Positions 21,016 through 23,385 of a stretch of 64,000 bases of DNA are shown here, piece after piece (the stretch's first letter is position 1; the number at the start of each line of letters is the position of its first letter). The DNA lies in assembly GCF_041886205.1 (NCBI RefSeq), contig NZ_CP169029.1; one strand, given 5' to 3'. Source of the stretch: Escherichia coli (GTDB lineage Bacteria; Pseudomonadota; Gammaproteobacteria; Enterobacterales; Enterobacteriaceae). Position numbers and translations under genes: made by a program. The notes under the pieces are model-generated. The model did no database searches, was not told where the DNA came from, and was given only the letters and a program-made list of their open reading frames with translations.

Positions 21016-21708
21016 CTAGTGATAACCACGCGCGGTCATAAAATCCGTAATCGCTTTTTCTACATCAACCAACACCTGTTCCAGTGGCTGATTGGCATCG
21101 ATATCAACCAGTTGTGCACCGCCAAAGGTTAACTGTGGCGTTATGGCTATCTTTCTTGCCAGCGATTCCCGTTTATGGTCGGGTTTACGCGCGCAGGCAA
21201 CTTCAAGGTCAACATTGAGTTTGATGACCAGATCAGGCTTATGGCTCGCCATCCAGTGAAACGCTTTACGTTCCTGGCTTGCCAGCCATGAGACAAAACG
21301 ACCACCTTCAACGTTAGGTGGGAACACCGTACCATCGTAAGCGCCAGGAATTTGGTCCTGAGGATAACGGTCGGTTAGAACAATTAACCCGCGACGACGA
21401 CAGGCAAGCATATGACGAAAACGCAGTAAGCGACGGGCGACAAACGCTGTAATTACCAGCGCCGGAACTGGTCCAGGCAATTTTTTTGCTGTTTTCACCT
21501 GATTTCGTTCAATTGTTTTATGTAAGGATTTTCCCATCAACGGTAATTTTGTCACTGCACGACCGACATTTCCGGCTTGTTTTCCTAAATGAACTCTTTC
21601 GGCAGCACCATATTTTTCGACAACGGTAATGAGATGTTCACACACCGTTGACTTACCTGAACCATCGCTACCAATAACGGCAATTAATGGAGGTGTTATT
21701 GACTGCAT
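21016..21708 (-). CDS. yghT: P-loop NTPase, nucleotide-kinase-like, YghT
   Basis: 230 aa with Walker [10 protein letters not shown] and a TDRYPQ motif; paralogous to the next two genes. Confidence 0.85.
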
Positions 21709-21881
21709 GAATATATCCTTTAATTTAAATATTCATCCAAAATATTTATTTGGTTAATATGTTTTGATGAAAGCGTAAATCAGGTCAATGTCATAATTAA
21801 CCATTGTCACAATAAGGTTGAACGGATATTCTGAGCACGGACCACGTAATATTCAATACATTATTTGCTGCCGGGTTTTTC

Positions 21882-22595
21882 GTGAATCAACGTAATATGT
21901 CAATAATTAATTCCACGCCAGTGCGTGTTATTGCCATTGTAGGATGTGATGGTTCAGGTAAATCGACCCTCACGGCAAGCCTGGTAAATAAACTGGCAGC
22001 AAGAATGCCAACAGAACACATTTATCTCGGGCAATCGTCCGGGCGAATTGGCGAATGGATTTCACAGCTCCCTGTTATTGGCGCACCTTTTGGGCGTTAT
22101 TTGCGAAGTAAAGCGGCACATGTACACGAAAAGCCCTCAACACCGCCTGGCAATATTACTGCACTGGTTATCTATCTGCTTTCCTGCTGGCGGGCGTACA
22201 AGTTTCGCAAAATGTTGTGTAAAAGCCAGCAAGGCTATCTGCTCATCACCGACCGCTACCCGCAGGTTGAAGTGCCGGGTTTTCGCTTTGATGGCCCGCA
22301 ATTGGCAAAAACCACGGGCGGTAACGGTTGGATAAAAATGTTAAGGCAGCGCGAGTTGAAGCTGTACCAATGGATGGCGTCTTATTTACCCGTATTGTTG
22401 ATTCGTCTTGGCATTGATGAACAAACCGCGTTTGCGCGTAAACCTGACCACCAACTGGCAGCGTTACAGGAAAAAATCGCCGTTACGCCGCAACTGACGT
22501 TCAACGGTGCCAGGATCCTTGAACTGGATGGTCGGCAACCAGCCGATGAAATTCTGCAAGCGTCACTACGCGCAATTCACGCCGCGCTTTCCTGA
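21882..22595 (+). CDS. yghS: P-loop NTPase, nucleotide-kinase-like, YghS
   Basis: 237 aa, GTG start, Walker A GCDGSGKST and TDRYPQ. Confidence 0.85.
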   Translation: MNQRNMSIINSTPVRVIAIVGCDGSGKSTLTASLVNKLAARMPTEHIYLGQSSGRIGEWISQLPVIGAPFGRYLRSKAAHVHEKPSTPPGNITALVIYLLSCWRAYKFRKMLCKSQQGYLLITDRYPQVEVPGFRFDGPQLAKTTGGNGWIKMLRQRELKLYQWMASYLPVLLIRLGIDEQTAFARKPDHQLAALQEKIAVTPQLTFNGARILELDGRQPADEILQASLRAIHAALS

Positions 22596-22626
22596 TCACC
22601 AAAATGGATAGGGGATGATTTAACGA

Positions 22627-23385
22627 ATGGATGCACTACAAACACAAACTGTTAATAGTACAACCGCGCCGCAGCCCAACTACATTCCGGGGCTGATTGC
22701 GGTGGTCGGGTGTGATGGCACCGGTAAATCCACACTGACCACTGACCTGGTGAAATCGCTGCAACAACACTGGCAAACTGAGCGGCGCTATCTGGGGCTG
22801 CTCTCCGGCGAAGACGGCGACAAAATCAAACGATTGCCGTTGGTTGGCGTCTGGCTGGAACGGCGACTGGCGGCCAAATCCTCGAAAACCCAAAGCATGA
22901 AAACCAAATCTCCGGCGCTATGGGCGGCGGTGATTATGTACTGCTTTTCGCTGCGAAGAATGGCGAATCTACGCAAGGTTCAGCGACTGGCGCAAAGTGG
23001 CGTTCTGGTGGTCAGCGATCGCTTCCCGCAGGCTGAAATTTCGGGCTTTTATTATGACGGACCGGGGATCGGCGTCGAACGTGCGACCGGGAAAATCAGC
23101 ATGTTTCTGGCGCAGCGCGAACGGCGTTTATACCAAAAAATGGCGCAATACCGTCCTGAATTAATCATTCGTTTGGGGATTGATATTGATACTGCCATCT
23201 CCCGCAAGCCTGACCATGACTATGCCGAGCTGCAGGACAAAATCGGCGTCATGTCGACGATTGGCTATAACGGCACAAAAATTCTTGAGATTGATGCCAG
23301 AGCGCCCTACAGCGAAGTGCTGGAACAGGCACAGAAGGCGGTTTCTCTGGTTGCCATCGTTTCTGACCGCCGAAGTTTAACTTAA
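22627..23385 (+). CDS. yghR: P-loop NTPase, nucleotide-kinase-like, YghR
   Basis: 252 aa, Walker A GCDGTGKST and SDRFPQ. Confidence 0.85.
   Translation: MDALQTQTVNSTTAPQPNYIPGLIAVVGCDGTGKSTLTTDLVKSLQQHWQTERRYLGLLSGEDGDKIKRLPLVGVWLERRLAAKSSKTQSMKTKSPALWAAVIMYCFSLRRMANLRKVQRLAQSGVLVVSDRFPQAEISGFYYDGPGIGVERATGKISMFLAQRERRLYQKMAQYRPELIIRLGIDIDTAISRKPDHDYAELQDKIGVMSTIGYNGTKILEIDARAPYSEVLEQAQKAVSLVAIVSDRRSLT

Follow-up and report, generated by a model that had tools for sequence, protein, structure and literature searches.

Three thymidylate-kinase-like proteins of an Escherichia coli sphingolipid locus and their possible role in building an anionic ceramide head group

What three neighbouring kinase-like proteins do beside a lipid pathway is the question raised by yghT, yghS and yghR, which occupy positions 21016-23385 of a 64,000-nucleotide stretch of the Escherichia coli contig NZ_CP169029.1 (assembly GCF_041886205.1), here called the window. 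A preliminary description of the window had suggested that the trio could phosphorylate a lipid or a lipid precursor. From sequence comparison, a predicted structure and analogy with known systems, we propose that YghT, YghS and YghR are non-redundant, soluble, cytoplasmic phosphotransferases of the thymidylate kinase (TMK) superfamily, which belong to a sphingolipid locus and would build an anionic head group on ceramide; we put the probability of this reading at about 45%. The part of the earlier idea that ties the kinases to a lipid pathway is borne out by their linkage to the sphingolipid genes, while the lipid kinase activity itself is something we infer. Beyond that description, the lipid pathway is the published dihydroceramide cluster, and the tightest partners of the trio are the flippase YghQ and a protein resembling CHAD domains. 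The trio was rightly called uncharacterised: in the searchable literature we found no functional study of yghR, yghS or yghT, which appear only in screen or regulon listings.

Results

Fold and motifs of the three paralogues

YghT, YghS and YghR are paralogues, as had been proposed, with pairwise identities of 34-44% that are far beyond chance (YghT/YghS 37%, E 2e-53; YghS/YghR 44%, E 3e-62; YghT/YghR 34%, E 9e-47). The alignment also bears out the two motifs named in the preliminary description. A Walker A motif of the form G(S/C)DG(S/T)GKST is present in all three proteins, reading GSDGSGKST in YghT, GCDGSGKST in YghS and GCDGTGKST in YghR, and so is a DR(Y/F)PQ block, which reads TDRYPQ in YghT and YghS and SDRFPQ in YghR. 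A third invariant block, RKPDH (residues 193-197 of YghR), was absent from that list and aligns with the lid region of TMKs.

The resemblance to TMKs, noted earlier from the motifs, is real but remote. Against the dTMP kinase model TIGR00041 the trio scores only 25.8-31.3 bits at a cut-off of 83.25, and the Pfam family Thymidylate_kin (PF02223) is matched below threshold, with best i-Evalues of 0.13 for YghR and 0.43 for YghT; NCBIfam and Pfam scans otherwise returned generic AAA matches and no direct family assignment. In contrast to these failed family cut-offs, a profile built from 47 family sequences matches solved TMKs with an E-value of 9e-11, the alignment covering the P-loop, the DRY strand and the lid and C-terminal part. 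The comparison of a predicted structure with known kinase folds, proposed with the original observation, was carried out for YghR. Its AlphaFold2 model (pLDDT 89.6, pTM 0.85) retrieved TMKs as the top 49 Foldseek matches in the PDB, at ~18% identity and TM-scores of 0.52-0.70, with the Sulfolobus tokodaii protein ST1543 (2plr) at rank 3. In hhalign comparisons, the family profile, with YghR as first sequence, matched ST1543 with an E-value of 1.2e-9 and E. coli Tmk with 2.3e-8.

In YghRST an insertion of ~45 residues, with invariant residues of its own, takes the place of the dTMP-binding segment of TMKs, and the hhalign alignment is poor or gapped there. Together with the sub-threshold scores, this replacement indicates a separate branch of the TMK superfamily, and hence the RefSeq name 'dTMP kinase' for yghS and yghT is not justified. 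No transmembrane segments were predicted in YghT, YghS or YghR. As far as the predicted model goes, these comparisons show a TMK-like fold and intact catalytic motifs for the three kinases.

Three ancient orthogroups

In a neighbour-joining tree the family falls into three deep clades, T, S and R, and alpha- as well as gammaproteobacteria are represented in every one of them; the T clade, for instance, includes sequences from Serratia, Erwinia, Carnimonas, Zymomonas, Acetobacter and Novosphingobium. The 225 family open reading frames (ORFs) comprise 74 of T type, 80 of S type and 74 of R type, and exactly one of each is found in 57 of 84 loci. Across the 225 sequences, residues K34, R132, D144, E165, R193, K194, D196, H197 and K205 are 100% conserved in each group and D131 is 97-100% conserved per group, while in the 74 T-type sequences all scored motif residues are 100% conserved. 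As the catalytic residues are kept in every clade, all three proteins are expected to be active enzymes with distinct roles. Judged from these sequences, the triplication is ancient and non-redundant.

Linkage to flippase, CHAD-like and ceramide genes

A profile search of 1.84 billion representative proteins returned 2,421 relatives (1,420 at E ≤ 1e-10). Two architectures occur: a stand-alone form of 230-310 amino acids and a form of ~500 amino acids with an unrecognised N-terminal domain. The stand-alone form has its nearest members outside the Enterobacterales in Acetobacter, Zymomonas, Novosphingobium, Carnimonas and a halomonad, and further hosts are Sphingobium, Gluconobacter, Commensalibacter, Azotobacter beijerinckii and others; sphingolipid synthesis is known or predicted for the lineages of the Sphingomonadales, Acetobacteraceae and Zymomonas. 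When one genome per species was scanned, 321 relatives were found, from which 80 loci were kept. The loci were scored by tblastn and by ORF clustering, with earlier loci added to each (12 to the tblastn set and 6 to the clustering; 84 loci).

Among the loci with full flanks, those of the Enterobacterales type carry the flippase, the CHAD-like gene, spt, acpR, cerR and aasR in 26 of 26 cases each, the ceramide genes being counted within 10 kb. In other taxa the flippase is present in 16 of 23 such loci, the CHAD-like gene in 13 and spt, within the same distance, in 9. The most constant neighbour of the trio is the yghQ-type flippase, found in 65 of the 84 loci. The gene set is complete in Serratia liquefaciens and Erwinia sorbitola, although in S. 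liquefaciens the aasR-cerR-acpR-spt unit has been relocated to a site upstream of yghT, which places sphingolipid genes on both sides of the trio. In Carnimonas the three kinase genes stand beside yghO, the CHAD-like gene, spt, acpR, cerR, aasR and lptFG, and spt, acpR, cerR and aasR also occur within 10 kb in Rhodanobacter, Luteibacter, Sulfuritalea, Gallionellaceae, Methylotenera and Rhodocyclaceae. The linkage of the trio to ceramide genes hence spans alpha-, beta- and gammaproteobacteria, and the physical linkage to spt, acpR, cerR, aasR and cerS survives rearrangement across taxa, as in a cluster of the Rhodobacteria type. The preliminary description would have given way had the kinases been conserved independently of the lipid locus; the profiling favours linkage, with 26 of 26 enterobacterial and 9 of 23 other loci.

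In Zymomonas, Acetobacter and Novosphingobium, two or three kinase genes are followed by the flippase gene, and in Zymomonas the CHAD-like gene comes next. Sphingolipid genes have been reported to be scattered in Sphingomonadales such as Zymomonas, and a module of kinases and flippase in these three genera fits this scattering. The gene content suggests that the trio, the CHAD-like protein and the flippase, a member of the MOP family, form one conserved module.

Several other families recur next to the kinases: an LpxO-like Asp/Arg hydroxylase in 19 loci, an ICMT/PEMT-like membrane methyltransferase in 16, and PAP2 phosphatases of a secreted type in 20 and of a membrane type in 9. A paralogue of the small membrane kinase DgkA lies beside the cluster in 18 loci, among them Serratia, Pantoea, Rosenbergiella, Tatumella and Carnimonas (for example L001, 1422-1784, and L012, 7108-7476). 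This paralogue, of which the E. coli window carries no copy, is a candidate ceramide kinase. The non-enterobacterial loci L046-L092 also encode a DUF2147-like protein and an RND pump with an outer-membrane factor; neighbour families in these loci (such as L064 4956-5525, L072 5380-6069, L065 6437-7180 and L046 10742-11500) were named from motifs and one Pfam record.

Two records stand out by their kinases. The first, filed under Martelella alba (L040), holds a complete cluster of the enterobacterial type with kinases 66-69% identical to the E. coli proteins. The second, a metagenome-assembled genome of Pseudomonas sp. (L025), holds kinases 69-72% identical to those of E. coli together with ceramide genes and lptF2G2, and has no yghQ, CHAD-like or ytfJ-like gene within its flanks. 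As these identities are far above those of other alphaproteobacterial and pseudomonad loci, contamination, mis-binning or recent horizontal transfer is indicated.

In the ~500-residue sister family (P0165, P0169, P0171), a YghRST-like domain follows an N-terminal domain of ~250 residues with the motif YCHWKSN..HL..AL.GETD.D.LVD, and the gene is always followed by one for a P-loop protein of ~240 amino acids (loci L007, L094 and L095). The possibility that the N-terminal domain is itself a CHAD domain, which would make the protein a Rosetta-stone fusion, was rejected, as hhalign gave a probability of 0.1% and no Pfam match was found. One relative of 889 residues (P0228) is a tandem duplication, and another of 978 residues (P0251) is a natural fusion of a MOP flippase to a kinase-like domain. 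The metagenomic contigs that encode the nearest non-enterobacterial homologues (L004-L006) are too short to be of use.

Arrangement of the locus

According to the ORF list, the gene order in the window is gss, pitB, yghT, yghS, yghR, yghQ and onwards to yghO, glcC and glcD, an E. coli-like arrangement. The three ORFs lie exactly at the coordinates given in the preliminary description, and all encode TMK-superfamily P-loop phosphotransferases: yghT on the reverse strand at 21016-21708 (230 amino acids, T orthogroup), and yghS at 21882-22595 (237 amino acids, S orthogroup) and yghR at 22627-23385 (252 amino acids, R orthogroup) on the forward strand. Their lengths equal those of b2986, b2985 and b2984 of strain K-12.

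The divergent orientation of yghT and yghS-yghR over a short AT-rich region is likewise as described before: the spacer at 21709-21881 measures 173 bp and has a GC content of 30.6%, compared with 51.8% for the whole window. It is probably a shared regulatory region. In a promoter scan of the spacer, sites were no commoner than in shuffled sequence, and the lone promoter-like site, at 21804-21832, faces yghS. A genomic-SELEX peak of FlhDC has been published within the spacer, and yghS is induced 3.1-fold on SlyA overexpression and is also listed in H-NS regulon sets; these listings fit an AT-rich promoter region silenced by H-NS. At the other end of yghT, a hairpin with a 12-bp stem (20977-21005) lies between yghT and the convergent gene pitB (19468-20967) and is probably a bidirectional terminator that marks the end of yghT. 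pitB encodes a low-affinity phosphate transporter. Its adjacency to yghT was not seen in Serratia or Erwinia and is therefore probably coincidental, though it deserves mention beside a putative phosphate-adding module.

The trio directly adjoins the lipid and export block, in line with the first observation: yghQ starts 45 bp after yghR, and a tightly packed array on the same strand, in the order yghS, yghR, yghQ, a gene for 274 amino acids, a YtfJ-family gene and two LptF/LptG paralogues, continues to 28352, with gaps ranging from start/stop overlap to 45 bp. yghQ (23431-24780, forward) encodes a MOP-family flippase, whose orthologues carry the Pfam domain Polysacc_synt. It is followed on the forward strand by the unnamed 274-residue ORF (24780-25604) and by the gene for a YtfJ-family periplasmic protein with a signal peptide (25613-26176; TIGR01626, E 1e-63; N-terminal hydrophobic peak). 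A YtfJ-family gene is present in every array of the enterobacterial type and in no other locus. Next come, also on the forward strand, a paralogue of lptF of the type of the sphingolipid exporter permease LptF2 (26206-27276) and an LptG2-type paralogue of lptG (27192-28352), which probably starts near 27273 and overlaps lptF2; the orthologues of both carry the Pfam domain LptF_LptG. The Caulobacter proteins LptF2 and LptG2 bind LptB, become essential once sphingolipid is made, and have been implicated in its transport (bioRxiv 10.64898/2026.04.12.717747).

For the 274-residue ORF no sequence match was found in the PDB, Pfam or NCBIfam, and the Pfam CHAD family did not appear even at E ≤ 10. 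The protein is conserved, with 47% identity in Carnimonas and 34% in Zymomonas, and its family keeps invariant arginine, lysine and histidine residues. Its predicted structure is all-helical and has the two-lobed CHAD fold, a polyphosphate-binding fold, with conserved histidine and basic residues; by this predicted fold the protein is CHAD-like. CHAD domains are inorganic-polyphosphate-binding modules (bioRxiv 10.1101/567040).

The genes between 28.4 and 34 kb correspond to the published B-type dihydroceramide cluster of E. coli, with spt, acpR, an epimerase-family reductase gene, aasR and yghO (PMC9386255). Four of them lie on the reverse strand: spt for serine palmitoyltransferase (28387-29559, RefSeq), acpR for a specialised acyl carrier protein (29559-29807, orthologues with Pfam PP-binding), cerR/epi for the NAD-dependent reductase of the ceramide pathway (29839-30753, from the published cluster and orthologues) and aasR for a specialised acyl-ACP synthetase (30750-32498). 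Assays of Spt, AcpR and AasR from BL21 have been published (PMC9386255). On the forward strand, yghO (32843-33985) encodes an N-acyltransferase of the bCerS type, that is, a ceramide synthase, which is 47% identical to the product of a gene in the Carnimonas cluster; yghO (ECD_02850) has been equated with CC_1154 (PMC9386255). In K-12 the gene is annotated as a 'putative DNA-binding transcriptional regulator'. Apart from the trio and the 274-residue ORF, no head-group enzyme was found in the E. coli locus, and the CpgA-D families, which form the head group in Caulobacter, are absent. As only YghT, YghS, YghR and the 274-residue protein fall outside ceramide synthesis and transport, they are the sole head-group candidates in the locus.

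Distribution in E. coli and the K-12 deletion

Of 5,426 complete E. coli genomes, 4,604 carry the trio at a coverage of at least 80%, and 4,058 carry the lipid and export segment at 25.6-32.5 kb. In K-12 MG1655 (NC_000913.3, 3129043-3134823) the stretch from the 3' end of yghQ up to aasR has given way to an IS5 element (IS5LO), and yghO, a truncated yghQ and intact yghRST are left. Hence, the carriage of yghRST in K-12 without the lipid genes is secondary.

In a K-12 transposon screen for vancomycin resistance, yghQ, yghR, yghS and yghT were all among the 50 hits, next to mla, waa, opg, lpoB, nlpI and tolC, in a list that abounds in envelope genes (PMC9278758, Table 1). This suggests that the yghQRST module influences the envelope as a unit, though polar or local effects may account for the hits.

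Discussion

A possible route to a phosphorylated ceramide

In the pathway that we propose, AasR, AcpR, Spt, YghO and CerR form dihydroceramide, a step that is published. The first phosphate might then come from DgkA, from the DgkA paralogue of many loci or from one of the three kinases; E. coli DgkA phosphorylates ceramide. TMK-type enzymes transfer the γ-phosphate of ATP to a phosphomonoester, and with this chemistry the trio would add further phosphoryl groups, the likely product being ceramide di-, tri- or oligophosphate. The phosphate chain would be bound or measured by the CHAD-like protein; YghQ would then flip this anionic lipid over the inner membrane, and LptF2G2 with LptB would extract it in the direction of the outer membrane. 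We infer which lipid is the acceptor, how the steps are ordered, how many phosphates are added and what the CHAD-like protein does. The PAP2 phosphatases of many loci fit a phosphorylated lipid. Taken together, the precedent of the archaeal polyphosphate kinase PPK3, the elimination of other head-group enzymes, the constant flippase and the anionic sphingolipid of Caulobacter make phosphorylation of ceramide the most economical reading.

In a more specific version, the product, in E. coli (roughly three quarters of the complete genomes) as in many other proteobacteria, would be an oligo- or polyphosphate anchored on ceramide, a 'lipopolyphosphate'. Starting from ceramide-1-phosphate, T, S and R would attach one phosphoanhydride-linked phosphate apiece, or would work together as a processive complex similar to PPK3. 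The CHAD-like protein would keep the chain in its grip, delivery of the highly anionic lipid to the outer membrane would fall to YghQ and LptF2G2, and in some taxa periplasmic PAP2 phosphatases would shorten it. We consider this version rather unlikely; if true, both the class of membrane lipid and the use made of the TMK fold would be new.

Several observations weigh against a ceramide-directed role. K-12, whose yghQ is truncated, retains intact yghRST without the ceramide genes yet shows the vancomycin phenotype; this would point to another substrate or to an indirect phenotype. The same screen also hit the genes ndk, hpt and guaB of nucleotide metabolism (PMC9278758). About half of the non-enterobacterial loci have no ceramide gene within the 10 kb flank searched. 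Of three gene contexts examined for the ~500-residue sister family, two are Wzx/Wzy polysaccharide loci; with the natural flippase fusion, this indicates that the common theme may be the substrates of MOP flippases in general and not ceramide. The predicted fold is the sole basis for the CHAD likeness of the 274-residue protein, which has no Pfam match. In the literature that was searched we found no mention of ceramide pyro-, di-, tri- or polyphosphate, no description of the head group of the E. coli sphingolipid, and no enzymatic or lipidomic datum for any member of the YghRST family.

Other roles for the trio

The kinases might instead act on a soluble precursor, such as a nucleotide, a nucleotide-sugar or a glycerate-like acid, which an enzyme from outside the locus would later join to ceramide. 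Soluble nucleotides are the substrates of the nearest characterised relatives, the acidic P-loop residue typical of TMKs (GxDGxGK) is kept, and the proteins are predicted to be soluble. However, the module has no conserved transferase, cytidylyltransferase or glycosyltransferase, so that three sequential soluble kinases would form an odd operon, and the segment that binds dTMP in TMKs has been replaced by the insertion. We regard a soluble substrate as unlikely. The nucleotide dTMP itself, with the three proteins as redundant dTMP kinases that lie beside lipid genes by chance, can be dismissed almost entirely: the RefSeq product names of yghS and yghT and the weak matches to TIGR00041 speak for it, but these matches (26-31 bits at a cut-off of 83), the lack of conservation in the dTMP-binding segment, a restricted taxonomic range that tracks sphingolipid loci and the existence of three conserved orthogroups all argue against it.

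The pairing of TMK paralogues with a CHAD protein is the same as in Sulfolobus, and raises the question whether the trio and the CHAD-like protein form a bacterial PPK3-type system that synthesises or uses up free inorganic polyphosphate, perhaps as an energy or phosphate buffer, linked to the lipid genes only by the phosphate or energy that it supplies. The PPK3 clade consists mostly of bacterial TMK paralogues (PMC12995831), and in E. coli the phosphate transporter gene pitB adjoins yghT. All three proteins, however, keep the arginine of the DRX motif and none matches the arginine-less regulatory subunit rPPK3, by which PPK3 operons are defined. Neither ppx nor sixA nor pst was found in the window, the family profile is no nearer to ST1543 than to E. 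coli Tmk, and a lipid or glycan flippase, the constant partner, would be needless for free polyphosphate. Moreover, E. coli already has PPK1. Such a system is improbable here. Still less probable is a function as non-kinase, nucleotide-dependent accessory or regulatory subunits that gate or energise YghQ or LptF2G2, for which the constant adjacency of the flippase, the natural fusion to it and a size near that of an ABC ATPase could be cited. MOP flippases are ion-coupled, though, and the kinase-specific DR motif and lid residues are invariant in the trio. An ABC signature is missing, the matches to ABC families spanning only 20-35 residues at the P-loop with E-values of 0.003-0.2, and the LptF2G2 of Caulobacter uses the housekeeping LptB (bioRxiv 10.64898/2026.04.12.717747).

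Implications

A complete locus for ceramide and Lpt-like export is present in most natural E. coli and in many Serratia, Erwinia, Pantoea, Citrobacter and other genera; that laboratory K-12 lost it through the IS5 deletion may explain why it has been overlooked. The head group sets the charge of the lipid, its interaction with polymyxin and host receptors, and whether it can be exported by Lpt-type machinery, and recognising the module narrows the question of the E. coli sphingolipid to a short list of candidate genes. It also corrects the annotation of yghS and yghT as 'dTMP kinase' and of yghO as 'transcriptional regulator'. Furthermore, the module suggests a second independent reuse of the TMK fold for phosphate chains, after archaeal PPK3.

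Comparison with known systems

The three proteins have the fold of thymidylate kinases, and with it the GxDGxGKST P-loop, a DR(Y/F) motif that follows strand 3 and, in the RKPDH region, a basic lid. They differ from these enzymes in the insertion of ~45 residues, which carries an invariant LG, LPxxG and R111, in the additional invariant residues D144, E165, D196 and H197, in scores below the family thresholds, and in their occurrence as three co-inherited paralogues in lipid loci.

A precedent is LpxK, the lipid A 4'-kinase, a P-loop kinase whose membrane lipid substrate is phosphorylated on the cytoplasmic side and only then flipped and exported by Lpt. In contrast to the trio, LpxK has a membrane anchor and belongs to another lineage of P-loop kinases, and no similarity to it surfaced in the family, profile or Foldseek searches.

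The anionic sphingolipid of Caulobacter, CPG2, offers the nearest pathway analogy (bioRxiv 10.64898/2026.04.12.717747). Its head group is built by the ceramide kinase CpgB with CpgC, CpgA and CpgD, which leads to ceramide diphosphoglycerate. As proposed for YghRST, cytoplasmic enzymes encoded in a locus with spt, lptF2G2 and a flippase gene render ceramide anionic. The enzymes themselves are different: CpgB has the diacylglycerol-kinase/LCB5 fold with a GGDG motif, CpgC is Tam41-like, CpgA is a CDP-alcohol transferase and CpgD a nucleotidyltransferase, and the Caulobacter cluster CC_1152-CC_1168 contains no P-loop kinase or TMK-like gene. We also considered YghRST as homologues of CpgB and rejected this, as they are P-loop proteins and have no diacylglycerol-kinase domain.

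The enzyme chemistry finds its closest parallel in PPK3, the heteromeric polyphosphate kinase of Sulfolobus (Saci_2019/Saci_2020), whose TMK paralogues are encoded in an operon with a CHAD protein and whose acceptor is a phosphate chain and not a nucleotide (PMC12995831). YghRST are likewise paralogues with a TMK fold encoded together with a CHAD-like gene, the latter likeness being taken from the predicted fold, and ST1543 (PDB 2plr/5h70), the S. tokodaii homologue of the catalytic subunit cPPK3, is among the best structural matches of YghR. In two pairwise profile comparisons, though, the distance of the family to ST1543 is about the same as that to E. coli Tmk. The bacterial set comprises three subunits instead of two, and R132 is 100% conserved in all of them, whereas rPPK3 lacks the arginine. 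Among the ORFs at 19-36 kb there is no ppx or sixA and among the conserved neighbours no gene of phosphate metabolism, pitB being adjacent in E. coli only. Instead, YghRST occur with a MOP flippase (65 of 84 loci) and often with ceramide genes.

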